From a virus (taxonomy: Duplodnaviria; Caudoviricetes), in IMG/VR virus record IMGVR_UViG_3300021400_000126, positions 32,001-96,000 of that record: 64,000 nt of DNA; one strand, given 5' to 3'. The position numbers and the translations under genes are program-made. Positions 32,545 to 63,998 of the stretch are shown one piece after another; the stretch's first letter is position 1; each line of letters begins with the position of its first letter. The notes beneath the pieces were generated by a model. That model worked only from the letters and a program-made list of their open reading frames with translations. It was not told the origin of the DNA and did not search any database.

Positions 32545-33075
32545 GGACTGTTGGCTTAATGGTGAAAGCAACTGGCTCATCTCTGGAAAGACTTATTTTT
32601 TAATAAAATGAATACAAATTTAATAGGAACAATTACAGAATTGAAATGTCAATTATATCTTTTAAATTTAGGATATACAATATCTGTTCCAGTTAATCCT
32701 GACAGATACGATTTAATTTTAGATACAGGAAAATAGTTATTAAAAATCCAAATAAAAACTTGCAACAATAATAAAGAAGGAGTTTTAACTTTTTCAACTT
32801 GTTCTTCTCATTATGTTCAAGGTAAACACGTTCACTCTTCCTATAAAAAGGATAATATTGATTATTTTATGACTTGTTGGGAGTAGAATTATTATTTAAT
32901 TCCTGTAGAAGAATGTGGTAAAAGAGAAAAAGTTTTAAGAATTTTACCAACTAAAAATGGTCAAATAAAAAATATATGTTTTGCTAAAGATTATATTGTT
33001 TAGGAGGTTCTGAAAAAAAGATAAGTAAGACGGAGATGAACCAGCAGATTCGGGGTTCAAATCCCTGACAGTCCA
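32545..33075 (+). tRNA. tRNA(CAT), probably Ile2, interrupted after the anticodon (exons 32545-32580 and 33039-33075)
   Basis: GGACTGT/ACAGTCC acceptor; joined halves give CTGG-CTCATAA-CCAG. Confidence 0.85.
32608..33024 (+). CDS. PD-(D/E)XK homing-type endonuclease inside the tRNA(CAT) insert (138 aa, TAG read-through)
   Basis: G.ITE, RYDLI, KIQIKT, Y....IDYF motifs of the I-Ssp6803I/PDDEXK_5 type. Confidence 0.85.
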
Positions 33076-33086
33076 GTTAAATATTT

Positions 33087-33160
33087 GGCCTGGTGGCTCA
33101 GCTGAGTAGAGCACTGCCCTGTCACGGCGGAGGTCGTGGGTTCGAATCCCATCCAGGTCG
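33087..33160 (+). tRNA. tRNA-Asp(GTC)
   Basis: cloverleaf. Confidence 0.9.
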
Positions 33161-33164
33161 TTAT

Positions 33165-33236
33165 GGCAATGTAGTTCAGTGGTAGAACGCCTGACTGTTA
33201 ATCAGGATGTCGAAGGTTCAATCCCTTCCGTTGCCG
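33165..33236 (+). tRNA. tRNA-Asn(GTT)
   Basis: cloverleaf. Confidence 0.9.
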
Positions 33237-33241
33237 TTTGT

Positions 33242-33445: not shown

Positions 33446-33460
33446 GAAAATTTAATAAGG

Positions 33461-33805: not shown

Positions 33806-33882
33806 CGCCCGCTAGTCTATACTGGTATTGAGGACAGCGGTCTCTAAAACCGCGGAGCTGGGTTCGATTCCCAGGCGGGTGA
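33806..33882 (+). tRNA. amber suppressor tRNA (anticodon CTA)
   Basis: CGCCCGC/GCGGGTG acceptor; GCGGT-CT-CTA-AA-ACCGC anticodon arm; CTGGG-TTCGATT-CCCAG T arm. Confidence 0.93.
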
Positions 33883-34123: not shown

Positions 34124-35019
34124 GCTCCTTTAGTTTAATGGTAAAACAATAGATTTGTTCACCCAATTAAAAATAATTGGAAAAGAAAGATAAATATCAT
34201 GTTAGAAACAAAGCAAAAAGGTATTATAACTTAGCTTCAATGTTTAACAGCCTTTAATGAATTAGGTTTAAAAACTTCTATTCCATATGGAGAGAATTCA
34301 AGATATGATTTTATTGTAGACATAAATGGAAAATTACTTAGAGTACAAGCAAAAACAGCTTCTGGTATTTTAAATGAAAACAATGAATTAGCAGGAATTC
34401 GTTTTTCTTGTAGGTCAACTAGAGTATCTGCACAAGGTAATTTTTATAGAAAATACAATAAAGATGAAATTGATTATTTTTGTACTTTTTGGAATAATAC
34501 TTGCTATGTTGTTCCTGTTGAAGAATGTAGTAATGAAAAAACCTTAAGATTTATGTATCCATCCAATGGACAAAAAAATACAATTTCATTAGCAGAAAAT
34601 TATACTATTGAAAAACAATGGAAAAAATATCTACCTGAAAATAGTGAATTTGAAAAACTTAGAGATAATTTAAATATTATTTTATATGGAAATAATAGTT
34701 AGAATAAATGTAAAAAATGTGGAAAACCTATCTCTAAAACTGCAGAGTTATGTATATCATGTGCAGCATAGAAGCAACATATTGTAAAAGATAGACCTTC
34801 AAGGTAGGAATTAAAAGAAATGATTAGAATCCTTCCTTTTACACAAATTGCAGATAAATATCATATTACTGATAATGCAGTTAGAAAATGGTGTGATACA
34901 TAGAATTTACCAAGAACAAAATCAGAAATTAAATCAATTTCTGATGAAGATTGGATAAATATTTAATTTAACATGGGTGAACAAATCTATTGATCTCAGT
35001 TCAATTCTGGGCGGGAGCT
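34124..35019 (+). tRNA. tRNA-Thr(TGT), interrupted after the anticodon (exons 34124-34158 and 34984-35019)
   Basis: GCTCCT/GGGAGC acceptor; joined halves give ATAGA-TTTGTAA-TCTAT. Confidence 0.8.
34199..34966 (+). CDS. PD-(D/E)XK endonuclease with C-terminal Zn finger and HTH, inside the tRNA-Thr insert (255 aa, TAG read-through)
   Basis: KG.IT*, PYGENSRYDFI, RVQAKT, IDYF; CKKCG..LCISC; IADKYHITDNAVRKW. Confidence 0.85.
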
Positions 35020-36080: not shown

Positions 36081-36128
36081 TTTAAAAATTTTTTGATTTT
36101 TTATAAAAATTATTTTATAATATATTAT

Positions 36129-37362: not shown

Positions 37363-37378
37363 TAAGGAGATTTTACAT

Positions 37379-38911: not shown

Positions 38912-39176
38912 TATAAATATTGGAAAAGGAGATGTGTAAGCGTCTCCTTTTTTATTTATATATGCAAAATTTTTATAGAACCTGATTAAAAGATTAAAAA
39001 ATGGACGGCGCGCAGACACTCGCCTTTAGAAAATAAAAAGTGGTCTATGATTTTTTCTTTTTGATTTTTATAAAATAGTTTTTGGTCAAGAATAGATAAA
39101 TGAACTTTTAAAATTTTAAGATAGAGTGTAGGAAAAACAAACTACAATATTTATAGAAAAGGGAGACTTATACATC

Positions 39177-39644
39177 ATGTTAGCATTACTTCAAAACTAC
39201 TCCTTATCAGATATTTTTATATTTACAATTTTTTTAGCATTAGCTATAAAAAGTTTAATTTCTTTTTTTGACTGGTTTCAGGAATATTTTAAAAGAATTT
39301 TTAACAAAGAATATAATAAAATAAATGAAAAAGAGAGCTTAGAAAAAAGATTGCGTCAAGGAGACGAAACAATGGCTATGTTAAAAGCCAATCAAAAAGC
39401 TACAGATTAGATATTAAAAGATTTATCTAAAAAAATAGATGTATTAATAGATTCAGATAAAGATCATATTAAATCTTATATAACTAAATAGCATCATTAT
39501 TTTTGTTATTAGAGGGGATGGATTGATGATTTTAGTCTGGACTGTTTAGAAAAACGATATCAACATTATGCAAATGAAGGCGGCAATTCTTTTATAGAAG
39601 GATTTATGGAAGAATTAAGAGCCTTACCAAAACAACCTAAATAA
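39177..39644 (+). CDS. putative holin/membrane protein (155 aa, TAG read-through)
   Basis: N-terminal TM helix, coiled coil, Y...GGN C-terminal motif; first gene of the late block. Confidence 0.65.
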
Positions 39645-39673: not shown

Positions 39674-42600
39674 ATGCCAATTTTAAATAATTTATATCCG
39701 CCTGTAGTTCCAGATACTATGCCGGCTTTCAATAGGGAAGAACAATGTAATATTGGTTTTTCTATTCCTATTTATAATTCAAAAGAAGATATAGCGGAAA
39801 ACCTTGTACAAATTTCAATAACAAATTTAAAAACAAATATTTCAGCTTTTAATAAAAAATTATATCCATCTGGAATAAAATTTGCTACAATGACTCCTGT
39901 TAATAATTTATATGGATATAATTATATAGTACCAATTAATAAAAATGATTTAATAAATGGCCGCTTTGAATTAAATACTTTTTATAAAGTTCAATTAAGA
40001 TTTACTAAAAAAATTGATAAAATATCAAAACCAAAAAAAGAAAAAGAAAGCGAATGGTTTGAATCTAACTCATCAAATTTTTCAGAATGGTCTAAGGCTT
40101 GTATTATTAAGGGTATTTCTGCCCCAACTTTAACTTTAAATAATTTTTCAGAAAATAATTCAAAAACCTCAGAAGTAATATTATCTAATCCTTTAATTGA
40201 TATTACTGGAAAATTAGTTTTTAGTAAAAATGAGAATGAATATTTAAAAAATTATAATATAAAAATTTTAGATGGAGAAACTAAAAAAATCCTTTTTAGA
40301 AGTGAAGATATTTATCCAACTGCAAAAAATGAATTTAACTATGTATTACCTTATGCTTTAAAAGATGGTGATACATATTTTTTATAGATTTCTTATATAA
40401 CAAATAATTCTTTTCAACAAACTAAACAATTTAAGTTTATTGTAATAGAATATTATGGAGTAGATAATTTAAATGCAGCTATTTCAACTTAGCCAAACTC
40501 CGATAATGGAACCATAAAAGTAACAATTACCTCTATTTTAGGAGAATCTTTTTTAGGAAGTTTTACAATTAGAAGAACTTCTTCTGAAAGTAATTTTTCT
40601 CTTTGGGAAGATGTAAAAACGGTTTCTTATGAAAAAAGTTAGCCATTAAATTATGTATGGTATGATAAAACTATTTAGAGCGGAGTTTTTTATAAATATT
40701 GCGTCCAAAAGCGCAATTCAAATGGAATACGAGGTCCTATTGTAAAACCTTAGGATAGCGGCAATAAATCATATGTAATGTGCGAATTTGAAGATATGTT
40801 TTTAACAACTGCTAATCAACAATTAAATATTAAATTTAATCCTGTTCTAAATGATTTTAAATATAATGTTACAGAATCTCAACAGGTTACAATAGGCGGA
40901 AAATATCCATATGTAAAAAGAAATGCAGATAATTATTTTAGAACCTTTTCTATTGGTGGTTTAATTAGTTCTTTTGTAGATACCTCTGATTGGTATATCC
41001 CTAGCGCGGAGTAGTCTTCAAATGGTTATGAATTTGATGAAAAAGGTGGAGAATTAAAAAATTTTACTTCTAAAAAAGAAATTTATAAAGAAAATCTTTC
41101 ATTATATTAGTAGTATAATGAAAAAAATCATATTTCTGAATATGAAGATTATATTTATGAAAAAAGATTTAGAGAAAAAGTTTATGATTTTTTATATAAA
41201 AATGATGTTAAACTTTTTCGGTCTAGTACTTAGGGGAATATTTTAATAAAATTAATGAATATATCTTTTCAACCAATGGAAAGTTTAAATAGAAGATTGT
41301 ATTCCTTTACTGCAACTGCTGTTGAAATTGATGAAGCTAATTTATTTAATTATAATAAATATAATATAAGTGTTATTGGTGATTATCTTACTCAAGTTGA
41401 AATTGTTAAAGATGTTTTTGGTGTTATTCAAGGTACTTATGCAAATAATACTAATATATTTGATTTAATAAAAAATAAATATAATAATAATATTGATTAG
41501 GATCGTCTTATTGAAATAAATTTTCTTAAATATTTAAAAATAGAAATTGATTCTTAGCCATATCCAGTTTATTATAATAAACAAACTAAACAAGTATAGC
41601 CATTAAATGATAATGCAATTTTTTCTGAATAGAATTTAAATTCAACTGCATTAGGTTATATAGTTACCATTAATGATAAAAATTATTTTATTCCTTCTCA
41701 AATAGAAAGAAAATCTATTTCAGACTAGAATATTCATAATGGATTTTTTGAATTAGATAATATTAAAATTACAAGTTTAAGTTTTCCGCAAGAAACAACC
41801 GTTCTTTTAACTTATACTGTATAGATTAAAGAAACAGAAAATCCTAATTATTTAATTAAAAGATTTAGTTATGAAGACGTTGTAGGTCAATTATATGGTA
41901 CTTTTAATCCTCAAGAATCTTTATTTAATTTAATTTATGTAAAATATTTTGAAAATGACAGTACATACTATAAAAGACTTGTAGATTTAATGGGCATTCG
42001 CGCAGAAGGGCCTCCTGGAGCAGTATTATATGTACAAGACTCAAATGATCAAGGATATTATAATAGGCACGTTTTAGAAAATGGATATTTGAAATTAAGA
42101 GATGATAATGCAACTATTTTTGGATTATATTTTAAAGGAATACATCTTATAAAAAGTAAAAATTCTATTAATTTTTTAAAATCAAATCGTTTAAAAATTA
42201 ATAAAAACAACATTGATTGGGATAATGTAAAAACCTATGAAAGTATTCAAGAAATTATAGAAAAGGAATCTAATCTTCAAAATGGAGATGTTTTTAGAAT
42301 ATTAAAATATGGAATTGAAGTAGATTCTTTTGATTCGGATGGTCATCCAAAAATTGATTTTTATAATGAGGGAACAACTGAAAACTCAGATAAAATAGTA
42401 AAAAGTTTTAAAGCATTATTTATTGCTTCTGAAAACTTAGATGATAATTAGGGCTGGATTGTTTCTATTGAAAATGAAGATAATTGGGGACAAGAAGTAC
42501 TTAATTAGATTCATGATCTTATGCTTAAAGAAATAAAAAATGATGATTCTTTAAAATATGTATATTATTATGGAGAATGGTATCCTATTTTAAAAGCGGA

Positions 42601-42856
42601 AGAATTAAGTAAAAATCTTTTAAAAACAGATATAAGACATATTAGAGATAATGAATATATTTTAACAAATGAAATATATAATAATTTTTAGGAAATAGAA
42701 AATATTATTCCTAATGGCGTTTATTATATTAATAATCAATATTATATTTATTATCATCAAAAATGGTATCCTTTTGATATGGATAATCATGATGTTTTAT
42801 GTCCAATAGATGGATTAATAGATTATTATTGTTAGATAGTGAGAGGAGCGTATTGA
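39674..42856 (+). CDS. large virion/tail protein (~1060 aa, TAG read-through)
   Basis: track ORFs 39674, 40778, 41255 and 41990 share one frame and are broken by TAG. Confidence 0.8.
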
Positions 42857-42860
42857 TAAA

Positions 42861-44930
42861 ATGAGTGAATTATCAAATAATTATAAAAATGTATATATAG
42901 CTGATTAGGCTCCTTATTTAAAAGATTCTTCTTTTTTAAAAGATTTTGATAAAGTCAAATTAAAAGAACAGTTTGTCAGAATTTTAGTTTTAACTTTTGA
43001 TGAAATTCCTATGCAATAGATTCATGGAAAGGTTATAAGTGGAAATATTTCATTAGACGGGACTTCCGCAATGAGAAGAACGTGCAATATTAATTTAATT
43101 TTGGATAATTCATAGATAACTTTAAACAATCTTAAAAATTTATTAAGTATTAATAAAAAAATTAAAATTTCAATAGGATTTACTAATGTTACAAATAAAT
43201 ATACTAATTATCCTATTCTTTGGTTTCCGCAAGGTACTTATCTTATCATATCTCCTAATATTACTCATAATACAAATGGAATTAATATTTCTTTAACACT
43301 CCATGATAAAATGGCTTTATTGAATGGAGAATGCGGAGGCGTTTTACCTGCTTCTGTTATTTTTCATGAAATAGAAGATGTTGATAGTGAAGGTAACACT
43401 TATATAACAAAGCCTACAATATATCAAATAATTCAAGAATTAGTTAATCATTTTGGAGGAGAGCAATTAGGGAAAATTATTATTAGTGATATAGACAATC
43501 AAGCTAGACAGGTTATGAGATGGACAGGTTCAACTCCATTATATTATTATGAAGAACAAGGAGGTACAAAACTTTTTACAACTTCTATTTCAAATTTACC
43601 TCAAAAGACTTCTTATACACAATATAACTATGGAGAAAATATTGGATATACTTTAACAGATTTTACTTATCCTGGTTAGTTAATTGGAAATGCGGGAGAT
43701 ACTGTTGTAACTATTTTAGATAAAATTAAAGATACTTTAGGTAATTATTAGTATTTTTATGATATTAATGGTAATTTTAGATTTCAAGAAATAAAAAATT
43801 ATTTAAATACCTCAAAAGCTACTGAAATTATAAAAAATATTTCTTCTTAGCATTATTTAGTAGATTTTTATAATGAAAAATCTGTCTACACATTTGAAGA
43901 TGGAGAAATTATTCAATCTTATTCAAATTCTCCTCAATTTCAACAAATAAAAAATGACTTTATAATTTGGGGAAAAAGAAAAGGATTGTAGGGGCAAGAA
44001 ATCCCAATTAGATATCATTTAGCTATTGATAATCAACCATTTTTTGGAAATACTAGATATAAGGTTTTTTTCTATACAGATCCTGAAGATAATATTAAAA
44101 AAGCTAAAATTCCTGAAGAGGGGAACCAACTACCTGAAAAAGGTGGTTTTAATAAATATTTCTTTTTAACTACAAATAATAAAATCTATAAATGGAATAT
44201 GGAAAAGAATCATTGGGATGAAACTACATATCAACTTTATAAAGAAAAAAATGCTACTTAGGCAGGTATTATTGCAAAAGATTTTAGAACAGAATTATAT
44301 TTATCTGGTTTATATCATGAAAATAAAGGAACTGAAAGCAATTATTATTTTGCAGAATTAAAAAATTAGTGGCCCAAAATCTATGATATTGAAAATGGAA
44401 AATTTTTTAATGAAATAGTTAAACATCCTAGTGATGTTGATTATTTTTTAGATTTTGTTAGTTATCCTGCCGCAGCTTCTGAGTTTAGTGTTTAGAATAT
44501 TGGACGTAGAACTATAACTATTGTAGATGATAAAATTAATTGTATTTTCTCTCCATAGTTTCCTAATGTAGTTTTAATAAATAATTCAATGGACGCCGCG
44601 GAAATAAAAGCATTAAGATAGGAATGTATAAATAGAGGACAATAGTGGTGTCAAGTAGATGATAATGTTTATTCTATGTTAGATGTTGGAGAAGGTTTCA
44701 GATCTGCTTTTGACTAGATAAAAAGATAGTTATTTCAATATACTGATTATAATGAACAAGTTTCTTTAACTACATTACCTATTTATTATTTAGAACCTAA
44801 TACTAGAATTTCAATAGAAGATTCTGAAAGTGGAATATATGGAGATTATATTGTAAAAAATATTTCTTTTTCTTTAGATATTAATGGAACTATGAACCTA
44901 TCTTGTTCAAAAGCACTAGAAAGGAGTTAA
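42861..44930 (+). CDS. tail/baseplate-associated protein (689 aa, TAG read-through)
   Basis: single frame; DKMALLNGECGG, YFYDINGNFRFQE, LPIYYLEPN. Confidence 0.8.
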
Positions 44931-44943: not shown

Positions 44944-45690
44944 ATGTATTAGTTTGGACAATTTTTAAGTACATAGAAAAGTTGGACAAGTTATAAAGAA
45001 GATGTTAATTTATCTGATTTAACATTTGATTATATTGTTACACAACTGTCTAATGATATTTATGGCGGCAACCAGATTAAATTTGCAAATTATTCAATGA
45101 AATATATGGAAGAAGGTACTATTCTTCAAAATGCACATTATTATTATTTAAATTTTAAAATAAAAAGAAGAAATGATCAAAGCAACAATCATGAACAGGT
45201 TTTTTATTTAAGATTACAAAGAGTTGAAAATGATATCGTTGTAAAATAGCAATACATAAAAACTTTTAGAGTTCCAAATTCTCTTCTTTAGGATGACTAT
45301 ATTTCATTTGAAGTAATTATTGCTCCTAATTCTAATTATAATCGGATAATTTGGTAGATGCAAAGAGAAATTATAGATTATACTATTTCAGAAAAAGTAA
45401 ATGGAGTTTCTTATAATGGAAGAGTTGCTATTATTCAAGTTAATACTTTTAGTGAAATAATAAATACAATTGATAGTTTTCAACTTAATTCTCAAGAAGC
45501 ATCATTATCTAAAATTGGAATCCAAGGTCCTCCTTCTTTATTAATATGTCTAAATGGGGAATAGATTAGAATTGGTAAAAATGGAATTTATGAATTAAGT
45601 AATAGTGTATAGATAGTTTTTTTAGGTTTTATTCCTAAAAAAGAAACAGACTATTTTATAATTGATTATGTATATGAAGGAGAGGATTAA
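44944..45690 (+). CDS. virion protein (248 aa, TAG read-through)
   Basis: AGGAGG RBS; KIGIQ..IGKNGIYEL..IDY C-terminal domain shared with 47848. Confidence 0.75.
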
Positions 45691-47847: not shown

Positions 47848-48204
47848 ATGGCTTTTAATGGATTTTTTGGTCAAATATCAGGTCCTTTTCAAGCAAATTA
47901 GAATATTTTTGAAAAAATAAAAACAGAACAAACTAATAATAAAATGAATTATATTTCTAAAATAGGAATTCATTATCCAGTAAATTTTGATTATCCATTA
48001 AATTTTAGTTAGAATTTTCAAGCAGCAGATTCTTTTTGTTTTCCAATTAAAGTTTCTTTATATGATGGAAAGCAAAAAAAAAGCAGGATTTTTCAAATAG
48101 GTAAAACAGGAATATTGGAATTATAGGATGTAAAAATTACATCTATTTATTTTTTAAATAATATAGATGATAATATTTATATTGATTATCAATATTAGTT
48201 ATAA
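47848..48204 (+). CDS. small virion protein (118 aa, TAG read-through)
   Basis: GAGG RBS; paralog of the 44944 C-terminus. Confidence 0.7.
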
Positions 48205-49851: not shown

Positions 49852-52437
49852 TTATAATGTTGTTCTTTTATACAACACTCTAAGGTTGACAGTTATTTTG
49901 GCTTGTGAAGATGCAAAATTTCTTACGGTAGCATTTAGTGTAGTTGAACCCCAATAATTTGTCACAACACAAGAAGATGAATTCGCACCAGAAGTTGTGC
50001 CTTCGGTATCTATTTTCCATCCAACTATTGCAACAAAAGAGAATCCTGTCGGTGCTGTAGCAGTTATTGTAACAGGAGATAAACTGGTGTTAGCACCAAT
50101 AGAAACATTGGTTTTTTTAAACTCTACAACTCTTACCATGTCTAGAATATTGCTAAGACCTAATGCCTATCGCCAAGCTGGTTTGGATGAAACTCTAACA
50201 ATATTATTTCCATCCTAATCAATTAATAAACGAAGATCGTTATAATAATTACTATTATTTACATTTCTATAACCTTGTAGTGTAATTCCTTGTTCACTAG
50301 TTTCAGAACCGCCTTCTCCTACTGGTCTAACATGATAAGCAATTCCACCCATCCTATTACCGTCCTTATCTCCTAAAAACAGCGCAAAAGGATTTCTAGA
50401 ATTAGTGTATGCAAAATCATTTATTGATAATTGAGGGCAACTAATATAAATACCTCCTGTGGAATTGGGAATTCTAATTAAACTAGACCTGTGCTAGTTA
50501 TCTGTTCCATTTCCAATTACAAAGGCATAGTCACCTGAATCAAAATAAACGTCAGGGCCGCCAACTGCTAAATCATCTGCACAATATACCTAATCTCCGC
50601 AGAATAATCCAGTTGCATTTAATGACACTCCATTATAACTGCCTATAATCGTAGTCTCTGGTCTTGATTTTAATATACCATTAGTAGTAATACAATTTAA
50701 ATCTACTCCATTTGCATTGCCTTCCCAATCTACTGCAAAAATATTATTATCACTATTTCTTTCTTTTAATTGAAAAGCATAATTTTCATCTGCTTTTAAT
50801 ACTTGTGCGCATTCAGATTTTACATATCCCGCAGTTGCAATTTGGTTAGAAACTGTACCATTTGGGGTTGTAGAAGTAGGAATTCCAGTTAGAGATGGAG
50901 AATTTATATTGGCTTTTGTATTTATATTTGTTTCAACAGTTAAAAGCCGTTCATTTAAATTTTTAATAACTAATCCATCAAAAGAATTAATTACCCAACC
51001 ATCTTTAGTATTATTATCATATTTTATATATGTAAAAATCTTTAGTCCTGGTCCCCATTGATAATATGGAGTAGTATCTGTTATTACTGAAAAACTATTT
51101 GGTCCATTTTGATACAAAATATCTTTTTCTAAAGAAGTCCCATTAATAGTTAAAGTGGGTGAAACTACATTATTTCCCTATGTAAAATAAATTAATATAG
51201 TGGCTTTTTCCGCAATATGATTTCCTAATTCTGTTCTTTCAATTAAACCACCATAATTATTTTCTGTATTATTTAAATTAATAATTTTTTCACTTGTTGT
51301 ATTTAAAGTTTCACAAGTTCCTGTCCAAAGTTTTTGAATATTATTAATTGTATCTGTTGGAGCTATCCAAGGTACATTAACACTTAATTGATTTGCAGAA
51401 TCAAAAACTACAGGATATTGTCTATTAAGCATAGTAGAAGGTGGGTCAATGGAACTTAAATTAGTTTTAGTTGTAGTTTGTAAATTACTTTTAGTTAATT
51501 GATTTTCAACTTGTCCCTTTACAAAAGCGGTTGTTGCAATTCTTGTAGAATTATCTGTGGCTGCTGGGGTTGTTGAAAGAGGAGTTCCTGAAAAAGCTGG
51601 TGAAGCAAGATTCGCTTTTTTATTATTTAAATATGAGATTATTGAATAATCTATATTTGATAATAACCAACAGTTATTATTAGCTTTATAAACAAAAAAT
51701 TTTAATCCAGACCCAAATTTATAAAAAGGCTCTGTAGTAGTAATAAGTTGTATGTCCCCGCTCTAATTTAAAAATCCAATAGAATATTCTATATTATTAA
51801 TTTTTATCTTGGGAGCTTGTGCAGTATTTTTTTCTTTAAAATAAATTGCAAGAATTTCATTACCAGTTAAAGAACTTGGAAAATTTTCATTATTATCTAA
51901 AATAATTGTTTTAATCTGGGTGGCGGCGGTATCTTCACAGGTACCAGTCCAAATGTTTTCAATTGATGATGAAAAAATAGTGTCTGTATCTGTCCAAGGA
52001 ACATTAACACTTAAATTCCCTGCCGCATCAAAAGTTACAGGATATTGTCTGCCATTTACACTTGTTGAAGCACTTGAAGTAAGGCTTGATAGCGCATCTG
52101 TTTTTAAATTATCTTTTGTTAATTGATTTGCAATCTGATTTTTTACAAAAGCAGTCGTTGCAATATTGGTAGAATTATCCGTTGCCGCAGGAGTAACAGA
52201 TTTAGGAGTTCCTGTAAAAGTTGGTGAATTAATATTTGCCTTATTCTTAATTTGAGTCTGAAGAGGAATAATATTTTGGTTACTATCTTTTACAGAATCA
52301 ATATCACCAATAATATGCTGTTTTAAATTTAAGTCTAAATTACTGTTCCAGTAGACATTTTGAGCTAATGCGGTAATTGGTATTTCATCATAACCACCGC
52401 TTGCATTTTTTACCTTTATGGCAACAATTTTATCCAT
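49852..52437 (-). CDS. tail fibre protein (861 aa, TAG read-through)
   Basis: four track ORFs in one frame; three KAxxxSPxFxGxP...IATTAFV collar repeats. Confidence 0.85.
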
Positions 52438-52509: not shown

Positions 52510-52824
52510 TTATAAATTTTCTAATTTTGTAAAAATTTTATTTGTAATATAAATAATTTCATCTCCATAGGTAGAAATCAAATCAGCTACTAACTACTAT
52601 TGCTAGATACTGAGATTTACATTATACGAAAACATTGCGGCGTGTGTAATTTCATGACAAAGAACTTTTTTTAATAAGTCTCCCTTTAAATTTTCGTTTA
52701 TATAAATAGTTCTTGTCAAATTATCACACGCTCCTATGGAAAATTCCCCAGATATCCTCTGTAAAAGAGGGAAATCTGGGGAGACAAAAGCAAGTTTCCA
52801 ATAAACTTTATTTATTAAAAACAT
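52510..52824 (-). CDS. HExxH zinc metallopeptidase-like protein (104 aa, TAG read-through)
   Basis: LCHEITHA followed by SI*Q**LVAD. Confidence 0.75.
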
Positions 52825-53465
52825 TAAGCAATTTTATTTGCCAACATTGTCATCTTTTGATGTAATGTGGCTCTTTCTTCGGGAGACGCATCTTTTATCA
52901 TTTCGGTAATATCAGAAGAAAGCTCTTGAAGATATGCTTCTAATTCTTTTAACTGAGTATTAGAATCATAATTCATTTCTTTTCCTTCCATGTACATGCG
53001 GCGGCGCATAGGTGATCTACCCTAACGCGGGTCTCTCATAATATTTCCCATGTCAGAATACATCATTGTACTAGTTCTTCCCATTGTCATAGGCTCTTCA
53101 TAGCCGCGAGTTCCATTCCCGCTAGATCCTGAACTTGAACCAGAAGAAGAACTACCGCCAGGATAATACATATACCCATTAGAACGTTCCATCTCTCTAT
53201 AATCTGGATAATACATTCTAGGAGTGTAGTAAGATGGAGATCCACCGCCATAGTAATTTATGTTAGTTTCTCCGCCCTTATTGCTTTCTTCACTTTTTTC
53301 CATCGACTAAGTAATTGTACAATAATAAATTGCTTCTGCAAGATCCTTTATCATATCAATTGCTTCGCCCAACTAATGAGCATCAACTTTTGAAATATCA
53401 CCAAGTTGACCTTGAACACAACTCATTAATTGTTCTTTCATCATTTTTAAAGATTCTGTTGCCAT
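52824..53465 (-). CDS. hypothetical protein of the conserved phage cassette (213 aa, TAG read-through)
   Basis: DAH*LGEAIDMIKDL, DPR*GRS, ELSSDITEMIKDASPEE. Confidence 0.8.
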
Positions 53466-53478
53466 ATCCTTTTCCTCC

Positions 53479-53934
53479 TTATGCTATTCTCTTGACATTT
53501 AATAAAGCCTCACGTCTTATTTGAATAGACGGAGTAGGTGTTGTAGTAGGATCATCTTCTGTTCCATCTACATACGCACCAGATACGGTTACACAACATC
53601 CACACGGCACTGTAATAAAAGCTGTAGTGTTTACATGCCAATATTCTTCAGCGGCCGCAGGCGTAACAATAGCAACGCTCTCTGGAATAACTGTTCCATT
53701 AAGGGTTATTCCTAAAGCAATTGGAGTTACCGCCCCTCCTTCGGGAATTTGAATATTACCTTGAAGAGTAACTTCATATCTTGAAAAACGATTGGAAGTA
53801 TTGCCATTTAAGTTAAGAACTCCAGGAACAAGAGGAACAACATTTCCCTTGTTGCACGGAATAGAAACACTATTAAAAGGAATTGTTCCATTTAATGCCA
53901 CTAATGCATCAGTGGTTGTTACATAACTTGCCAT
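53479..53934 (-). CDS. beta-sandwich (BclA-C-like) protein
   Basis: GGAGG RBS; beta-rich sequence, VPCGCC. Confidence 0.7.
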   Translation of the reverse strand: MASYVTTTDALVALNGTIPFNSVSIPCNKGNVVPLVPGVLNLNGNTSNRFSRYEVTLQGNIQIPEGGAVTPIALGITLNGTVIPESVAIVTPAAAEEYWHVNTTAFITVPCGCCVTVSGAYVDGTEDDPTTTPTPSIQIRREALLNVKRIA

Positions 53935-55095: not shown

Positions 55096-55614
55096 TTAAA
55101 GACCAATTATAGTTTTTTCTTGCTGACCCTTCACAATATTTTGCTATTGTGACAGTGGTCCATTTGTATTAATATTTGTTGTCTTATTGGGCTGTTGTTG
55201 AATAGATAACATCAATGCCTAAATTACTTTATTAAATTCTTCTTTTGTGACATATTCAGCCGATTCATATGGACTCTCATCTTTTGTTAAAACATAAGTT
55301 TTAAAAGCTGCTGTCCCATCGTTATTAACTTGTTTTGTGTAAATTCTTCCATTGCCAACATCGGTAAATACCCAAAGAGAACCATCTAAATCAATTTGAA
55401 ATGCTCTAGCTTCTTCTCTTGAAGAAACTGGTCTACATTTTAAAAATTGATTATTCATAAGATTTTGAGAATTATTCATTCTATTCATATAATTATCATA
55501 TGAATTATTATTCAATAACATGCTATTGTTCCCATATGGGAATTGCGCTTGCGGCTGCCCCATTAAATTAGGCGACTGCTGCATACCAATGTTAGGATTA
55601 TTGTAATTTGCCAT
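55096..55614 (-). CDS. Q/N-rich hypothetical protein, TAG read-through
   Basis: AGGAG RBS; RPVSS.EEA..IDLDGS..F.D. Confidence 0.75.
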
Positions 55615-55806: not shown

Positions 55807-56295
55807 TTATTCCCAATTTATTTCATTATCAAATTTTTCAATATATGCATCAAAAATGCATATTGCATCAGCTTCATCATCATTGACAATTAAATTATAT
55901 TTATCTTTAACATATTTTTTATCTTGCGGTTTTAGCTACTGGCGCTTTATACCGCGTCCTTGTTTTATTTTAAGGGCTGCCCGCCACTCACTTGCACTAA
56001 TAAAATCATACTATATTTTAGGATTAATTTCATAAATAGCTACTACAATAACTGCTTGTAACCACATTAAGACTTTATTAGTATGAGAGTTATACTATGG
56101 TCGGACTTCTTCCATAACAACTTTATTAATCTAGTTCTAACGAATAATCTTACCTAGCTAATCCCGCATTTTTATAATACGTTTAACTACATCTTTTGAA
56201 CTAGCTGTTATGCATCCATGTTTTTTAAGCTATCCATCCTAACCAATAGCATAACCAGAGGAGCGGGTAGATAAATCTAATGTTAAAATTCTCAT
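55807..56295 (-). CDS. ruvC: RuvC-like Holliday junction resolvase (162 aa, about 8 in-frame TAG; absent from the ORF track)
   Basis: ILTLDLSTRSSGYA, VVMEE, ASEWR, NDDEADAICI. Confidence 0.85.
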
Positions 56296-56638: not shown

Positions 56639-59600
56639 TTATTTCCATTTTAAACCTGTTACAGTACTATTATGAGAATAGCCATTAATATCTACGCTTG
56701 TTCCTTTTATACTTCCAGAAAGTCCATTTTCTGATATAACAACATTTGATAATAATGAAGCAGATTGTAAATAATTTTGTAAGTATGCTTTATTAACTAT
56801 CTTTTTTAAAAAGCTCTCATTAACATAATTATCAATAATTGTTTTAATATAATCAACTAAAGGATAGTAATCTGTTTTTTTACCTTTCTTAAATTGTATT
56901 TGTGGTTTTTCTTTAAATTTAACTTCATTAATAAAAGTTCCTATATTTGCATTTTTTGCTATTATTTTAGGGGTCTAAAAAGTCCCATTAATAACAGCCA
57001 ATATATCTGGACTTCCTAAATAAACTGCACCAATTTTATCTTTTGTTTTATAACCAATTGAAGCTGTTTGATTCCCATTTGGTCCAAATTGAATTCTCGC
57101 TTTATCATTAAAAGAATATATTACTGGTTGTTTCTATGTTTTACCTTCTGTGCGCCAAGGAAGAATTTGCCATCCATTTGAATTTTTTCTTCCTACATAT
57201 ATCCCATGTCCAAAAGATGCTTTTCCATTGACTATTTCCCAATAATCTGAAGAATTTGTTTTTGATGAGTCTATTACAGAAAGGTCCATTCCATAAACAT
57301 TTCCATTAGCATAAAGACGAATACTATTTCCTTCTGTATTTCCTTCAAAAACCTTCGTTTTATTTTTATCTTTTCCTATTTTCCAAGGACCAAATATACC
57401 TTGATTAAAGGTAGCATTTCCTTTTCCATCAACTCTCCATCCAGAACCTGGTTCATACCCTTTTGATTGAATTGAGCCATCTGAATTAATTTTAATATAA
57501 CTAATAATAGTAGAACCTACTTGAATATAAGGAATTGTTTTGGAATCTGTTGATCCTGCATAAAGAGTAATCATATCATTCTGTGATTTTAAAGAACTAC
57601 CTCTAATTTTCCAACCACCAATACTTCCACTGTCAGCAGTAACTGTTCCTCTTATCGTAGCATTATTAAACTCTGCCTCTCCTTTTCCAGTAATTTGCCA
57701 TCCTCGTGTATCTGCTTTATAATTGCCACCACTTATAGTCCCTGTACTATTTATGATAATGTTATTTGCAGATAATGTTGTAGAACCAATTGTCCATCCA
57801 CCAATTTCACCACTATAAGCTCTTAAAGATCCTTGAGCAGTAACAGAAAAACGTTCTCCTAATGAAATACCATCTGTTCCTAAATAAACTTTTGCTGAAT
57901 TTTTTGTTGTACTATCTGCTGTATTAACCTTAGTTTCTCCACCATATGCTATATATGCTCTACTGGTGTCTCCATCTATAGTCCAATGGTACTTATTTTT
58001 ATTATTAACAGCACCAGGCCCTACTGTTACAACACCAGTATTAGAAATTTTTATTTTACTACCAATAGATAATCCTTGTTCAGAAAGGAAAAAACCATTA
58101 TTTGAATTATCTATTGAACTATGACTATTAGAATAAATAGAACCGTTATTTCTTAAAGTAATATTTCCTATTTTACTTGTTAAAGAATTATCTCCAATAT
58201 TCCAACCAGCAATAGAGCCTCCACCTTTTGCGGTTAAATGCCCTTTATCATCAACATTAAATTTTCCACTACCAAAATTAATAGATGGATCAGATAAATT
58301 AATTAACATACCTGTTCCATTTTTTGTGCTATAATTTCCACCATAAATTAACGCTTCTTGATCCTTAGTTGGATCTATTACAATTTGTCCAGCTCCACTT
58401 TTTCCAAATCTTGCGGAACCATTGTCACTATTTAAAAATATAGTTCTTTCTCCGTGATAATAACCAAAAAGCCCCATCTAAGTAGTATTTGAAGCGGGGT
58501 TTTTAACTCCACCCATTAAAACACCAGAAAAACCATTATCACTCTATTTTTTTCCTGCTCCAACTTGCGGTGATAAAATAAAACCTTTATCCTTATCTAT
58601 TTGAATATTATTTCCATCCCACTAATTAATATTTGCTAAACCATATTTATTTAATAAAAAATGAACAGGAATATTAATTTTTCCTATTATAATATCTTTT
58701 TGTGTTAAAATATCTTTTTGTGTTAAAACACAAACTATAGCATTATTAACAGACAATCCATCATAAATAGATTTAGGTTTAAAACTTTTTTGATTAGGTT
58801 TTAAATTATTTTTTTTCTCAATCTAAAACATATTAGAGGGAACTATTATTTCATATTTATTTTGTGAATTTTTATTTCTATAAGAACCAACAAAAGAAAA
58901 ACTATAATCAATTTTATATTCTTTTGTAAACTAAGAAATATTAATTCTTTTATCACTTTTATTGTCAATTAATTGTGTGCAAATAATTTCAAAAGGATTG
59001 GTTGAATCATATTTTGGAAATTTTCCACCACTATCATATAACACATATCTAAAACCAGTGTAATCTTTTAATTTTACTCTATAATCATCATTCCTTACCC
59101 ATGCAGTAATTATAGGGATTGTTCCATAATAAATTTTATTCTATAATTTTAAACTGCATTTTATAATATTAGCAAAAGATTGCGATTCATTAAAACTTTT
59201 AAAATAATTATTCTGTAATTTAAAAAATCCTTTAGAAGAATCATTTAAAATAAACATTGATTCATCTTTTTTATCACTTGAATATTCATTTTGTAAAATT
59301 TCCCATTTTACTTCTGTTGGAATAATTTGATTCTTTTGACCTTTCTTATCACTCCAAACAATCTGCCCATTATTCCATAACTAAATATTAAAAAATTTGT
59401 ATGCAGATTTTAAATTTAAGATATTCTATGAATTACTATTATTCAATCCATAATTTAATAAGTAACCCTCATCAGTTGTTCCTATTTTTGTTATCATAGG
59501 ATATAAAGGTGGTGTACTTGTATTAGTATTAGGAACCAATTTTATTACATACTAAGTTCCATTAGTTCCAGGCTATCCTGTTTTTACAAAAGTAAAATTA

Positions 59601-61693
59601 GTAGTTGCATTTAGCTTTATATTTTTATATTTAATAAAAAGTTTAATTTGATTTCTTTGCTTATCGACATAATAATTATTAGAAATTTGATAAATAATAT
59701 TAGTTTTATTATAATAATATTTATAATTTCCTGTAGAATCTTTTTTTGGTTCTACTGTTGGATTAATTCTATTATCTAAACTATCTTCTAATAAAGTATC
59801 TTTTGCGGGAAACTACCATCTTATTGTACAATTTTTATCTTTTGCTATAATGTCTGAATCAATAGCGTTTCCTAAATTATCAAAAACAGTAAAACTTAAT
59901 GATTGAATCTATTGAGGATTTTCTAAACTTTTACTGGTAGGAGAAGTCCCATTTTCATTATATTGATATGTTACAGTTCCATTATTTATAACAAGAGAAT
60001 ATTCACCTTCTTTTTCTAGTTTATTAGTTAAAGTAATCGCCGCGGTGCCTAAATATAAATCTTGATTATAAACAGAACATTTAAAAGTGCCTCTAGAAAT
60101 AATTCTATTTATTTGCACATCATATATTTTATTTTTTTCAACTCTTTGGATATATCTAAAATTTTTAAGTTTATTCTCTAAATCTTTAATTTCTTCTGTT
60201 TCTACTTCAATAAATTTTGTTTCATTTTTAATTGCATTTTGAAGATCTTTTAGTTTATCATTATATTTATTATATAAATCATTTTCCTTAGTTGTACTAG
60301 ATAATTCCTAAAAATTATTATTATTTGATTGATATCCCCAATAATAATGATATTCCTACTATTTTCTTTCTTTCCCATCTATTTTGCAAGTTAAAGTTGG
60401 ATGCCCATTATCATAATAAAATTGAGTACCATTACTAGATTCTATTGTGATTTCTGAAGCAGCTAAATTTTCAATATTAATTTCTTTTGTAATAATATTA
60501 TTATCATATAAAATCGCAACTTTAAATTTATTATTTCTTGCAGTAGCTTCTTTTATTTTTACTACATAAATATCATTTTTTGGAATCCATTCAATTACAG
60601 GATCCGTAGTTTCTGTTCCTTTTGAAATTAAATTACTTTCATTTAAACATTTCCATCCTTTTCCAAGATATTTATTATAATATCTATTATTAGCAAAAAC
60701 ACTTGCATTTTCACTACCCCAATAAAAATTAATTTTTTGGGTAGAAGAAGCTATTTTTCCTTTTACTTTTACTTGTGCGGTAATAGGAATTTCTGATAAT
60801 TCATTATTATAAAATACAGTTCCTCTTGGGGTATAAAAACTGATAGAAACTCCACTAATTTCATCCTAAGTCATCTTATTCATTCCTGTAAATTCTAAAG
60901 AAGAAATAAATATATCTGCATCTTCTTCTTCAATAAGAATAGAATTATTAGGACTTTCCTATGCTTCAAGAAAATCTTGACAAAAAATCTCAATAGAATC
61001 AATATTTTCAAAATTCTATCCATCAATATTAAAAATTTCATATTGACGCATTTCTGTAGTTAATCTATATGGATTTCCAATCATACTATCCTAATCTAAA
61101 ATATATGACCTAATAACCTCTTTGTTAGTTTCATTGTCAATAAATTTTAAATTAAATTGGATTCCATAATGTCCTCGAAATTGCTTTTCTGGCTAAATAT
61201 TTGTTTTAAAAACCGCGCCAATTAATAAAGATGATGATTTTTTAATATAATTTTCTATTTGAGAATTTATACTAATAAAATTCTTTGAATTTGGATAAAT
61301 TTTATATCTATATTTATCAATTTTAGTATTTAAATATAATGTATTAACTGAATTAATACAATTTGTTCCAACTGTATTATAGGCCTATTCTCCTTCTGCC
61401 TGAGAAATATAATTAATGCCTAATCTATTTACAGCCCCAATAATTGTTTTTTCTTTACTCATATCATTATCTGGAACAAGTATATACACATAAGATTTTT
61501 CATTATATGTTGTATCTACATTATTTGAATAAGCATATATAATTGCATCTTGATAACGACATTTATATTTTCCAATTGTTTCATCTTCACAAGAAATAAT
61601 TTGAGCTTGAATTGTTTTATCATAAGCAGCTTTTTTAATTGAATTTTCTGTAAGTAATTCAATTGCATCTAATATTTTACCACTTACACTCAT
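56639..61693 (-). CDS. large tail protein / tail spike (~1684 aa, TAG read-through)
   Basis: track ORFs 61693, 60118 and 58477 share one frame; G.IGGW.I repeats in the C-terminal half. Confidence 0.8.
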
Positions 61694-62027
61694 TTAATAA
61701 TTCCTCCTTGTATCTCTTCTTCTATATAATATATAGAAAATAATACAAAATAATTATCTAATATTGCCCTTTATATAAATTATAAAATATTTTTTCATTT
61801 TTGTCAATCATTTTCTAATATTTTATCATAATAATATCGAGTAACTATAAAAAAATCTTTTTTAGTAATATTTTTTTCTTTTACTAATTTTATCATATCT
61901 TTTATATTATAAGCACCGTGTTCCCATTTATATTTTATTACATTTATACTCTACAAATACTCCCCTTCTTTCTTTAAACAATAGAAAGAATGAGCAATAC
62001 CACTCATTCTTTCTATTATAAATATTT

Positions 62028-63998
62028 TTATCTCATAGCTCTTTGTGCGGCGAGATTAACTAAATCATTTAATGCTTCCTAAATTTCTTTTTTACTATTA
62101 ACATTTGGAAAACTTGCCTAAATTTTTACCTGTTGTTCTATTGCGCTTTTATTGTTAATATCTTTTGAAAAACCATTATTTAAATTTCCTAATTTAGAAA
62201 TTACATTCCCGCTCATAGAAGCCACAATTGAACGCATAATAGTAACAGAATCTAAAATATTTTTTGTATCTTCTTTATTTAAAACAAGTTCTTTTTCATG
62301 AAGAATTGCAGGACGACCCTCTGAACTGTTCCAATTTCCAGTGTAGCCACCAGTATCATAAACCGCTTTTTTATTACCTTGACTAACCCATGATTGTAAA
62401 TTTTTAAGATAAAATTGAGCGTTTCCTTTTAATTTATCTTTATCAAAAGATTGATACCATGAAGCATTTTTAATAATACTATTTTTATACTATTGATTAG
62501 GAACGACACTATCTCTTAAATATGCATGAACTCTATTGTACATTTCTTTTCCAAGCTATTCTCCAAAGACTTCAATCATATTTTTTCTTCGAGTTTCACC
62601 ATCTCCCCAACTTTTTGATAATAAAATACTACCAGCAATTCCCATAATAATATTTTTATCTGCCCCATCTATTTGTTGTAATTGACCTGCTTTAATAGAT
62701 TGGTCAACATTAAGAGATTTATCTTTCTATGTTTTTCCTTGGTGCTTTAAATCAGCTACATACTATGCTCGATTAGTTTGTAATAAACCGCTGTAATTAT
62801 CTGACTCCCATTGACCTTTATTTCCTTTTTTACCAGTATCTTTTTTCTGCTGTTGTTTTTTCTTTCTGGCAGCTTCGTCTGCTTCTCTTTTTGCGGCTGC
62901 CGCAGCCTGTTCTTCTTGAGCTTTGATAAATTTATGTATCGCATCAACAGCAGCTATTGCTTGCTTATAAACCTCTTTATATTTAAGACTTAAATCATGT
63001 GCAGCATCTCTTAATTTTTCAATACTTTTTAATTCAGTCTTCATTTGACTAATTAAAGTATCATTATTTTCAATTAATGGAGCATATTCTTTTGCAGATT
63101 CACTTACACCATCTTTCAAACTACCAAAATCAGTTCCTGCAACATTCGCTAAAGTATTTAATTCATCTTGATAATCTTTAGTTGCTATTCGAACTTTCTA
63201 AAATGATTTTTCACAAGCTGGAATGAAACCACCATCCTATGATGCAAATTTATCAATCATTTTTTGAATTCCAATATCCCATTCTGGAACCAATTGCTTC
63301 ATAAGAATTTCTTGTTCTGCATCAGACATATTTTGAAATTTTTGAACATCTTCATCATAAAGATAAGCCAAATCTGAAAAAGCATCTTCTTTTAAATATT
63401 TTCTTATATTAAGATTACTCTAAGTTTTATTATTAATGTACTAATTATAATTATCATTTAATAATTTTTGTCTTTCAAGTCGTTCTTCTTCAGTTAAAGA
63501 CATATCTAATTGAATCTCTTTATATTTTTCTTGGAACTCTTCCCAAGCCGAAAGCATTTCTTCTAAATTACTTTTATATTTATCTAAATCAAAATTATAA
63601 AGATCATTTAATGCATCTGCATATCCAGATTCAGCTTCTTCAATAGCATCATTATCAGCTACATATTCATAAGAATAATTGCCTTGAGAATCTCTTTTTA
63701 ATTGCATTGAAGTTTTTGCGGAACGTGAATCTTCTAAAGCAATCCTAGCTTGCTCAACCTATAAAAGTTTTTGAGCGCGATCTATATCATACTGAGACAC
63801 CTTTTGTTTATTTTTTAAGATATTTAATTGTTCATTCATTAATTTCTTTAATTCTTTTTGATTTTTAATAGTTTTAGTATCATCAATTGCTTTCTGATAT
63901 TTTCTTTGAGTCTATTGAATAGCAAAAGCAGAATTAATAGTATCTAAATACTATTCTCCATTTTTCTTCATCAAATCCCATTCCATATTGAGATAATC
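62028..63998 (-). CDS. tape-measure-like protein, C-terminal part (5'-truncated by the window; TAG read-through)
   Basis: long coiled coil; DTGGYTG.W, LHEKELVLN..DT, I*ASFPNV. Confidence 0.8.

Follow-up and report, generated by a model that had tools for sequence, protein, structure and literature searches.

Stop codon recoding has been described in several groups of phages. In the TAG-recoded ('genetic code 15') phages, which include crAss-like, Lak, Garnet and other phages (Borges et al. preprint 10.1101/2021.08.26.457843; Peters et al. PMC9523058) as well as Phass-1 (PMC10607447), in-frame TAG codons are concentrated in late and structural genes, TAA and TGA are kept as stops, the phage encodes a tRNA(CUA) but no synthetase, the host is presumed to use the standard code, and TAG stands for glutamine. 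Other phages, such as Agate and Topaz, are TGA=Trp (code 4) recoded (Borges et al.). In the phage-recoding literature examined, only these two assignments are stated to occur in phages whose code differs from the host's, which is explained by the susceptibility of GlnRS and TrpRS (Borges preprint), and no paper reporting TAG=Glu in phages was found. UAG is read as glutamate in eukaryotic nuclear codes, among them that of peritrich ciliates (NCBI table 30). Another such code is that of Blastocrithidia nonstop (PMC12153298).

Here we examined a stretch of 64,000 nucleotides (positions 32,001 to 96,000 of IMG/VR record IMGVR_UViG_3300021400_000126, hereafter the window), which is part of a complete 133,306-bp phage genome attributed to gut or rumen Firmicutes, although the host itself is not identified. 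A preliminary description, made from the sequence alone, had proposed that TAG is a sense codon at positions 32608-63998 of the window and that it encodes glutamate, or ambiguously Glu and Gln, rather than glutamine. We confirm that TAG is read through in this region, and the comparisons presented below support glutamate as the residue for which it stands.

TAG as a sense codon in the late genes

Under translation table 11 the region 32608-63998 contains only short ORFs. When TAG is read through, it holds ORFs of 1060, 689, 712, 861 and 1684 aa together with part of a 3010-aa ORF, each with 6 to 73 in-frame TAGs and with TAA or TGA at their ends (Table 1). Over the genome the late genes are open only if TAG is sense, with 361 in-frame TAGs in total; every recoded ORF ends in TAA or TGA, with TAA ending most ORFs, and relatives of this clade have no in-frame TAA.

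Table 1. Features of the window, with positions counted from its first nucleotide.
Position	Strand	Feature	In-frame TAGs	Observations
32375..32449	+	Phage tRNA-Glu(UUC)		Same D stem (GUCU/GGAC), G2·U71, C3-C5/G68-G70 and A73 as the suppressor
33806..33882	+	tRNA(CUA), the only amber-reading tRNA of the genome		ARAGORN; Rfam RF00005 at 45.8 bits; C1-G72, G2·U71, C3-G70, C4-G69, C5-G68, discriminator A73; D stem GUCU/GGAC with U11-A24 and U13-G22; variable loop of 4 nt
34199..34966	+	PD-(D/E)XK (PDDEXK_5) endonuclease with a zinc ribbon	5	Paralogue at 32608-33024 with 3 TAGs; TAG at 34232 opposite E in the paralogue and in 2 relatives
39126..39644	+	Late ORF, 172 aa	4	aa 129 has Q in 23 relatives, one of the few sites with a Q consensus
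39674..42856	+	Virion or tail protein, 1060 aa	19	Contains RSSTXGN
42861..44930	+	Tail protein, 689 aa	15	Query for the 58 related loci and for the tree; contains GNYXYFYD and YPGXLI
44944..45690	+	Late ORF, 248 aa	7	aa 207 has Q in 18 and E in 10 relatives
45693..47831	+	Late ORF, 712 aa	11
47848..48204	+	Late ORF, 118 aa	4
49852..52437	-	Tail fibre protein, 861 aa	6
52510..52824	-	HEITH-motif protein, 104 aa	3 (52594-52605)	TAGs lie 14-17 residues after the motif
52824..53498	-	Late ORF, 224 aa	4	Contains DAHXLGE and DPRXGRS
55096..55614	-	Late ORF, 172 aa	2	TAG at 55219 (KVIXAL): relatives N 5, A 4, Q 3, T 1, K 1
55807..56295	-	RuvC-like protein, 162 aa	8
56639..61693	-	Protein, 1684 aa	23	A search for related loci with this protein returned nothing
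62028..64000	-	C-terminal part of a 3010-aa protein, probably the tape measure, running beyond the window	73 in all, 13 in the window	EIXEAL lies opposite EIEEAL of Phass-1

The peptides on which the preliminary description was based were all found at the places it gave (X marks an in-frame TAG here and in Table 1): GTITELKC versus GIITXLQC (TAG at 34232), NYTIE versus DYIVX (33001), IYFKE versus IYFTX (51178), IDYVYE versus IDYQYX (48196), and SIXQXXLVAD (52594-52605). However, the evidence from internal paralogues alone is thin. Indeed, the endonuclease pair gives E at 2 of 4 TAG sites, and the TAG sites aligned among paralogues inside the genome (E 4, K 4, N 3) were too few to decide anything. 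The label of HExxH peptidase given to the protein carrying SIXQXXLVAD also rests on weak evidence, since its Pfam matches (DUF6782, Peptidase_M78, SprT-like) are below threshold.

Most of the individual sites named in that description are confirmed by relatives. The residues opposite TAG are E in 20/20 for DAHXLGE, E in 14 of 14 sense codons for DPRXGRS, E in 53/53 sense codons for RSSTXGN, E in 43 of 56 for YPGXLI and E in 56/57 for GNYXYFYD, while the three TAGs of SIXQXXLVAD lie opposite E 12 (D 5), E 13 and E 18. The two sites that it had considered to fit Gln equally well are indeed ambiguous: RLXTYK has Q in 2 relatives and KVIXAL is mixed.

Residues opposite TAG in related sequences

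In order to determine the amino acid, we tabulated the residue opposite TAG in homologues, which is the comparison that the preliminary description had itself put forward. TAG was translated as X, which scores equally against all residues in tblastn so that the alignment cannot favour E, and the codons were read at DNA level, so that database translations made with code 15 cannot bias the count. Across 100 related IMG/VR loci, the sense codons opposite 191 TAG sites are mainly GAA or GAG and the aligned residues are E 0.41, D 0.10 and Q 0.06. This matches the GAA and GAG control sites (E 0.53-0.57, D 0.09-0.10) and does not match the CAA and CAG control sites (Q 0.49-0.54, E 0.06-0.07). The log-likelihood is -433 for E, -568 for D and -569.5 for Q. 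Of 49 conserved columns, 45 are E, 2 are Q, 1 is S and 1 is D, a purity equal to that of GAA sites (256 of 271) and GAG sites (48 of 49), and 31 of the columns occupied by TAG are at least 95% E in relatives. A majority of Q in the conserved columns had been named beforehand as the outcome that would overturn the glutamate reading, and it was not observed.

The same holds when only the window range is considered. At its 110 informative TAG sites the aligned residues are E 0.275, D 0.10 and Q 0.06, whereas GAA control sites in the same genes give E 0.37 and CAA control sites give Q 0.32 and E 0.08; the log-likelihood is -282 for E, -318 for K and -320 for Q, and all 10 conserved columns are E. 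In the reverse comparison, where relatives in the first 42 terminase-region loci have TAG, this genome has E at 150 sites, K at 28, D at 23 and Q at 22.

We next examined cultured phages annotated with the standard code. Enterococcus H1 has E at 20 of the TAG sites and Q at 2, Alicyclobacillus KKP_3916 has E at 8 and Q at 1, and Geobacillus E3 has E at 3 and Q at 2. The terminase motif FNRXY aligns with FNREY, FAREY, FEREY and FGREY. Furthermore, in 49 full-length representatives of distant terminases, TAG column 137 is E in 48 of 49 and column 290 is E in 41 of 49; summed over 12 sites, E is 3.84 and Q is 0.81. As positive controls, sequences with other codes were passed through the same pipeline. 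Phass-1 TAGs lie opposite Q of the present genome at 13 sites and opposite its E at 3, a group of IMG/VR relatives gives Q 126 and E 52, and another group has in-frame TGA opposite W 66, F 21 and Y 17. Hence the pipeline returns Q for Phass-1, published as TAG=Gln, and W for TGA-recoded relatives.

Other approaches did not discriminate. GAG and CAG are both halved in late genes, so codon usage does not distinguish between E and Q. Among solved structures, the GH25 endolysin aligned to PDB entries but its TAGs fall in variable positions or in an ambiguous register of the ATEG motif, the terminase and the RuvC-like protein had no usable PDB match, and no catalytic Glu unambiguously encoded by TAG was found. 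The single TAG in the domain of the GIY-YIG endonuclease is at a variable position.

The tRNA(CUA) and its possible charging

The tRNA(CUA) is conserved in relatives, and seven family members fold as a cloverleaf, with 8 of 20 pairs kept through compensatory changes. The identity of the tRNA over its whole sequence barely discriminates (65-67% to tRNA-Glu and 63-65% to tRNA-Gln), and the argument rests on a few identity positions. In the 8 distinct tRNA(CUA) sequences of this clade, the 1-72 pair is C-G in 6 and G-C in 2, the 2-71 pair is G·U in 8 of 8, and position 73 is A in 6 or C in 2. Phage tRNA-Glu and one cellular Clostridia tRNA-Glu have G-C, G·U and A at these positions. In contrast, phage tRNA-Gln has A-U or U-A at 1-72, a Watson-Crick 2-71 pair, and G73 in 4 of 5 (A in one, as in the one cellular Clostridia tRNA-Gln), while three Phass-1 suppressors have a weak or mismatched 1-72 pair, a Watson-Crick 2-71 pair and G73. 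The glutamine-type features U1-A72 or another weak first pair, G2-C71, G3-C70 and G73 (PMC9976931) are thus absent from the family, which has C-G at 3-70. U1-A72 is listed as the mark used by amidotransferases and GluRS2, with G1-C72 as an antideterminant.

Other glutamate identity elements gave a less uniform picture. Of the augmented D helix described for tRNA-Glu (U11-A24, U13-G22:A46 and absence of residue 47; PMC9976931), U11-A24 is invariant, but U13-G22 and the 4-nt variable loop are present only in the window's copy, the six other family members aligned having 5-nt loops and G13·A22, and no clear outcome was obtained for this element. The anticodon loop is CU-CUA-AA, in which, of the anticodon determinants U34, U35, C36 and A37, U35 and A37 are present while U34 and C36, two strong GluRS determinants in E. 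coli (PMC9976931), are absent. Hence charging by GluRS is not self-evident, and amber suppressors in E. coli tend to be glutaminylated; this bears only on how the tRNA is charged, which was not assayed, and not on what the codon means.

No phage-encoded GluRS, GlnRS or release factor was found in the genome. The endolysin gave only weak matches to Ruminococcus and Clostridia MAGs. Those MAGs show no GlnRS-type domain and two of three have GatB, but they are incomplete and the link to the host is weak, so that these observations serve as context only. With respect to the distribution of TAG, ORFs with fewer than 3 TAGs have 1.9 TAG per 1000 codons against 21.1 in recoded ORFs, and eight or nine early ORFs have a TAG within their last few codons; without expression data, this does not settle whether early genes avoid the codon or use it as a stop.

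Interpretation and comparison with described codes

With high confidence, we consider that TAG is a glutamate codon in middle and late genes of this phage clade, and that the phage carries one tRNA with anticodon CUA built like a Firmicutes tRNA-Glu. What the data themselves establish is that TAG is a sense codon, that it is exchanged with GAA and GAG and sits in columns conserved as E, and that the tRNA has Glu-type acceptor positions. The enzyme that charges the tRNA, the absence of amidation and a role in timing are inferences. In this view, a host glutamyl-tRNA synthetase would charge the tRNA with Glu and, because its first pair is a strong C-G or G-C rather than U1-A72, the Glu-tRNA amidotransferase (or GlnRS) that would give Gln would not take it. 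The tRNA would therefore insert Glu at UAG in competition with release factor 1. As early genes would largely avoid TAG, and several seem still to end in it, full-length virion proteins could be made only once the suppressor is present. There are no protein-level data, and comparative analysis shows which residue selection expects, not what is inserted.

The alternatives appear much less likely. Glutamine is the assignment reported for recoded phages whose code differs from the host's, and a few TAG sites do lie opposite Q in relatives (Table 1), but for the Glu signal to be an artefact of composition or alignment is very improbable: control codons in the same alignments behave as expected, TAG follows the E and not the Q profile, the pipeline does return Q for Phass-1 and for a Q-type IMG/VR clade, and the log-likelihood is 136 nats worse for Q than for E. 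That TAG is still a stop, the genes being strings of fragments or pseudogenes or being read through only rarely, can hardly be maintained. Several early ORFs seem to end in TAG and the phage has no release-factor gene, yet essential genes (those of the terminase, portal, tail proteins and 3010-aa protein) carry 8-73 TAGs and no TAA or TGA, homology runs across every TAG, TAG positions are conserved or exchanged with sense codons in dozens of relatives, and a dedicated tRNA(CUA) is conserved.

Ambiguous decoding, in which the suppressor is charged partly with Glu and partly with Gln, for example through mischarging by GlnRS or partial amidation, and each TAG site yields a mixture of residues, is unlikely but is not excluded by sequence comparison. 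The CUA anticodon lacks U34 and C36, and amber suppressors are substrates of GlnRS in E. coli (Borges preprint; PMC9976931). Moreover, Q-consensus columns are slightly more frequent for TAG (2 of 49) than for GAA (3 of 271), although this excess is not significant, and this part of the preliminary description receives no support. A sizeable Gln fraction should be selected against in the columns given above that are at least 95% E in relatives or are E in 48 of 49 and 41 of 49 distant terminases, and the tRNA family keeps a strong 1-72 pair and lacks the GlnRS determinants G73 and G2-C71.

If this reading is correct, which we regard as likely, a natural TAG-to-glutamate code exists in a clade of large siphoviruses of rumen or gut Firmicutes, while sister lineages of the same phage group use the standard code, TAG=Gln or TGA=Trp. 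Whether UAG means Glu or Gln would then be set by a few acceptor-stem nucleotides of the phage suppressor tRNA, which decide whether a Glu-charged tRNA is passed on to the amidotransferase. Such a clade breaks the rule that only TAG=Gln and TGA=Trp occur and calls for a different charging route. Gene callers and databases (Prodigal code 15, the NCBI 'code 15 clade') would put Q at about 360 positions of this genome, some of them in columns that are nearly invariant Glu in the terminase, and structure prediction and function assignment would suffer for a whole clade of rumen phages. The co-occurrence of standard-code, TAG=Gln, TAG=Glu and TGA=Trp lineages in one phage group offers a system for studying code change; it shows how quickly the meaning of a codon can change, and also provides natural Glu-type amber suppressors that could be useful in synthetic biology.

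Compared with the eukaryotic codes of peritrich ciliates and Blastocrithidia nonstop, UAG is likewise read as glutamate, but those are cellular codes in which UAA is reassigned as well, whereas here only TAG is reassigned and the code belongs to a virus that differs from its host and is probably used only late in infection. With the TGA=Trp phages the strategy is shared, as is the phage group, since eight related loci have in-frame TGA opposite W, while the stop codon and the amino acid differ. Bacterial tRNA-Glu, as represented by phage tRNA-Glu and a cellular Clostridia tRNA-Glu, shares with the suppressor G2·U71, C3-C5/G68-G70, A73, a D arm with U11-A24 and a strong 1-72 pair, but has UUC or CUC instead of CUA as anticodon, and the first pair of the suppressor is C-G in most members, not G-C. 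Finally, the code 15 phages resemble the present one in the placement of TAG, in the stops retained, in the phage-encoded tRNA(CUA) without a synthetase and in the presumed standard code of the host. Phass-1 belongs to the same broad phage group, with a terminase 45% identical, a genome of about 136 kb and a tape-measure-like protein of more than 3000 aa; the amino acid differs, being Gln there and Glu here, as do the suppressors at the acceptor identity positions.

Genome context and in-frame TAG codons

The window (bases 32001-96000) belongs to a single contig of 133,306 bp with a 107-bp terminal repeat and 30% G+C, which is a complete phage genome. It encodes a split PolC-like polymerase, anaerobic NrdD, gyrase, ligase, a DnaB-like helicase and sigma factors as well as a terminase, a portal, tail proteins and a GH25 endolysin. 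The terminase is 45-47% identical to those of Enterococcus phages H1 and EF1, Geobacillus virus E3, Alicyclobacillus phage KKP_3916 and the human-gut phage Phass-1, and about 33% identical to those of SPbeta-like Bacillus phages and Lactococcus phage 949-like phages. The host is therefore almost certainly a Firmicute, although the direct host evidence is weak, and NrdD points to an anaerobe. In several relatives among the IMG/VR loci used below (L030, L031, L032, L036, L038 and L041, with terminase matches spanning 2.4-2.6 kb instead of 1.7 kb), and in Enterococcus phages EF1 and EF5, the terminase gene is interrupted by an insert, which in EF1 is annotated as an HNH homing endonuclease.

Under translation table 11 the late regions break into short ORFs, while with TAG read through they give ORFs of up to 3010 aa. 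Genome-wide there are 361 in-frame TAGs, at 21 per 1000 codons in recoded ORFs and 1.9 per 1000 in the others, and every recoded ORF ends in TAA or TGA. The observation made in the preliminary description, that these genes stay open only if TAG is a sense codon, is thus confirmed, and the peptides and coordinates on which it relied are all correct. In contrast, eight or nine early ORFs carry a single TAG within the last few codons of the read-through frame, which suggests that TAG still ends some early genes, as described for other recoded phages. The features discussed here are listed in the table.

Coordinates of the features discussed (window positions unless a locus is named)
Feature	Coordinates	Remarks
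tRNA(CUA)	33806-33882	only tRNA(CUA) of the genome
Apparently interrupted tRNA	32545-33075	PDDEXK_5 endonuclease ORF at 32608-33024 between tRNA-half-like sequences
Apparently interrupted tRNA	34124-35019	PDDEXK_5 endonuclease ORF at 34199-34966 between tRNA-half-like sequences
tmRNA	35803-36083	Rfam RF00023, 101.9 bits; tag peptide ADNYTYQMAA; directly after tRNA-Ser
529-aa protein	37322-38911	no TAG; matches phrog_850 'RNA-binding protein' (E 1e-119); beside the tRNA and tmRNA cluster
ORF with a TAG site mostly Gln in relatives	39126-39644	aa 129; Q 23 of 35
ORF with a TAG site mostly Gln in relatives	44944-45690	aa 207; Q 18 against E 10
Early ORF with near-terminal TAG	8512-8946	
Early ORF with near-terminal TAG	9918-10634	
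Early ORF with near-terminal TAG	13124-13468	
Early ORF with near-terminal TAG	13560-13973	
Early ORF with near-terminal TAG	14476-14952	
Early ORF with near-terminal TAG	23372-23953	further early ORFs share this arrangement
tRNA with anticodon UUA	L111:2898-2972 (also L070:2395-2469)	contig IMGVR_UViG_3300021399_000007, a close TAG=Glu relative

The residue opposite TAG in relatives and homologues

In order to determine which amino acid TAG stands for, every ORF was translated with TAG as X and compared by tblastn with the DNA of related loci, and the subject codon was read at each aligned position. Database translations made with code 15 therefore cannot bias the count, and X scores the same against every residue. 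Each site was counted once, with residues normalised per site. Two scans of IMG/VR gave 100 loci, of which the 42 retrieved with the terminase are 73-99% identical to it (best segment) and the 58 retrieved with the tail protein are 26-61% identical. Since the loci fetched with the terminase are close relatives, their sites are not phylogenetically independent, a point which is addressed by the distant and standard-code sets described below.

Opposite 191 TAG sites the residues are E 0.41, D 0.10, Q 0.06, N 0.06 and K 0.06, while GAA and GAG control sites give E 0.53-0.57 and D 0.09-0.10, and CAA and CAG control sites give Q 0.49-0.54 and E 0.06-0.07. With substitution frequencies learned from the sense codons of the same alignments, the log-likelihood is -433 for E, -568 for D and -569.5 for Q. 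The tabulation of conserved columns had been proposed beforehand as the test of the glutamate reading, which would have fallen had these columns been mostly Q. Among columns with at least 80% consensus, TAG sites are E 45, Q 2, S 1 and D 1, which is the same purity as that of GAA (256 of 271) and GAG (48 of 49), whereas CAA sites are Q in 141 of 149. The interpretation of TAG as glutamate is hence supported, in the absence of any protein-level evidence and without excluding a minor Gln fraction at TAG. The two sites where the relatives mostly have Gln, in the ORFs at 39126 and 44944, are exceptions to the Glu pattern and may be ordinary E/Q exchanges. In the reverse direction, counted on the first 42 (terminase-region) loci, the TAGs of the relatives lie opposite E of this genome at 150 sites, K at 28, D at 23 and Q at 22. 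Within the range of the preliminary description (32608-63998) the relatives are more distant; there E is 0.275 (GAA control 0.37) and Q is 0.06, the log-likelihood is -282 for E, -318 for K and -320 for Q, and all 10 conserved columns are E.

Independent sets of standard-code homologues were next examined. Three cultured phages with ordinary GenBank annotation give E at 20, 8 and 3 of the TAG sites of this genome, and Q at 2, 1 and 2, respectively. In the terminase, FNR*Y (the asterisk being TAG) aligns with FNREY, FAREY, FEREY and FGREY, and LKN*I aligns with KKEI, KREV, KNEI and RFEI. A full HMMER search of 1.8 billion representatives gave 49 full-length terminases at 26-67% identity, in which column 137 is E in 48 of 49 and column 290 is E in 41 of 49; over the 12 TAG columns, E sums to 3.84 and Q to 0.81. 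Furthermore, eighteen IMG/VR loci without any in-frame stop give plurality E at 44 sites and plurality Q at 10.

As positive controls, the same pipeline was found to return other answers. Phass-1, published as TAG=Gln (PMC10607447), has its TAGs opposite Q of this genome at 13 sites, D at 11, K at 8 and E at only 3. A group of IMG/VR relatives (L068, L069, L079, L084 and others) gives Q 126, K 70 and E 52, while another group (L073, L076-L078, L080, L085, L088 and L098) has in-frame TGA opposite W 66, F 21 and Y 17. Relatives of the same phage group (L073, L076-L078, L080, L085, L088 and L098; and L068, L069, L079, L084, L086, L087, L089 and L091) use other codes: one set has in-frame TGA opposite Trp, another has in-frame TAG opposite Gln, and others have no in-frame stops. 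On a FastTree of the tail protein, the window sits in a clade of 18 rows, all TAG=E, with support 98. Given that this tree is from a single gene, made with a quick method and unrooted, no order of events is drawn from it. The neighbours of this clade are standard-code, TGA=W and TAG=Q clades, and a second small TAG=E pair (L074, L075) lies elsewhere.

The tRNA that reads TAG

The tRNA(CUA) lies in a cluster with tRNA-Glu(UUC) and the tmRNA, and the genome has no tRNA-Gln. In the same part of the window, the two PDDEXK_5 endonuclease ORFs sit between sequences that look like the two halves of tRNA genes, and these tRNAs appear to be interrupted by endonuclease-carrying inserts, although ARAGORN and Rfam do not call them. 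A pattern scan found the same tRNA(CUA) in 10 related contigs. Seven distinct members fold as a cloverleaf with compensatory changes in 8 of 20 pairs, and G2·U71, G10-C25 and U11-A24 are invariant. One close TAG=Glu relative also carries a tRNA with anticodon UUA, which would read TAA; whether TAA is read through there was not examined. This tRNA has a U·U first pair and G73.

The tRNA(CUA) of this clade has C1-G72 or G1-C72, G2·U71 (8 of 8) and A73 (6) or C73 (2), while nine phage tRNA-Glu and a cellular Clostridia tRNA-Glu have G1-C72, G2·U71 and A73. In contrast, all five phage tRNA-Gln and the three Phass-1 suppressors have a weak or mismatched first pair and a Watson-Crick 2-71 pair, with G73 as the discriminator in four of the five tRNA-Gln and in all three suppressors. 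The published identity rules fit (PMC9976931): U1-A72 marks tRNA-Gln for GlnRS, GluRS2 and the amidotransferase, G1-C72 is an antideterminant, and U11-A24 and the augmented D helix are GluRS determinants, although of the augmented D helix U13-G22 and the 4-nt variable loop occur only in the window's copy of the tRNA. However, overall sequence identity does not discriminate, being 65-67% to tRNA-Glu and 63-65% to tRNA-Gln, and the anticodon lacks the GluRS determinants U34 and C36. The tRNA evidence therefore agrees with the codon evidence but would not carry the claim alone.

Proposed decoding and comparison with known codes

While the codon comparisons and the tRNA features are results of the analysis, the mechanism that follows is inferred. 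No GluRS/GlnRS-type synthetase and no release factor were found in the phage, so a host enzyme must charge the tRNA; neither the host nor this enzyme has been identified. The cultured hosts of this phage group are Firmicutes, and among the control genomes Bacillus and Lactococcus lack the GlnRS-type domain and have GatB, making Gln-tRNA through a non-discriminating GluRS plus GatCAB. In such a host, a GluRS that already accepts C36 and G36 might also accept A36, and the outcome, Glu or Gln, would then depend on whether GatCAB takes the tRNA, that is, on the first base pair. This hypothesis, which was not tested, would explain how sister lineages came to read the same codon as Gln or as Glu.

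No report of TAG=Glu in a phage or bacterium was found in full-text literature searches, which did not extend to subscription journals. The Borges preprint states that only TAG-to-Gln and TGA-to-Trp are seen in phages whose code differs from that of the host, while UAR=Glu is known in some eukaryotes.
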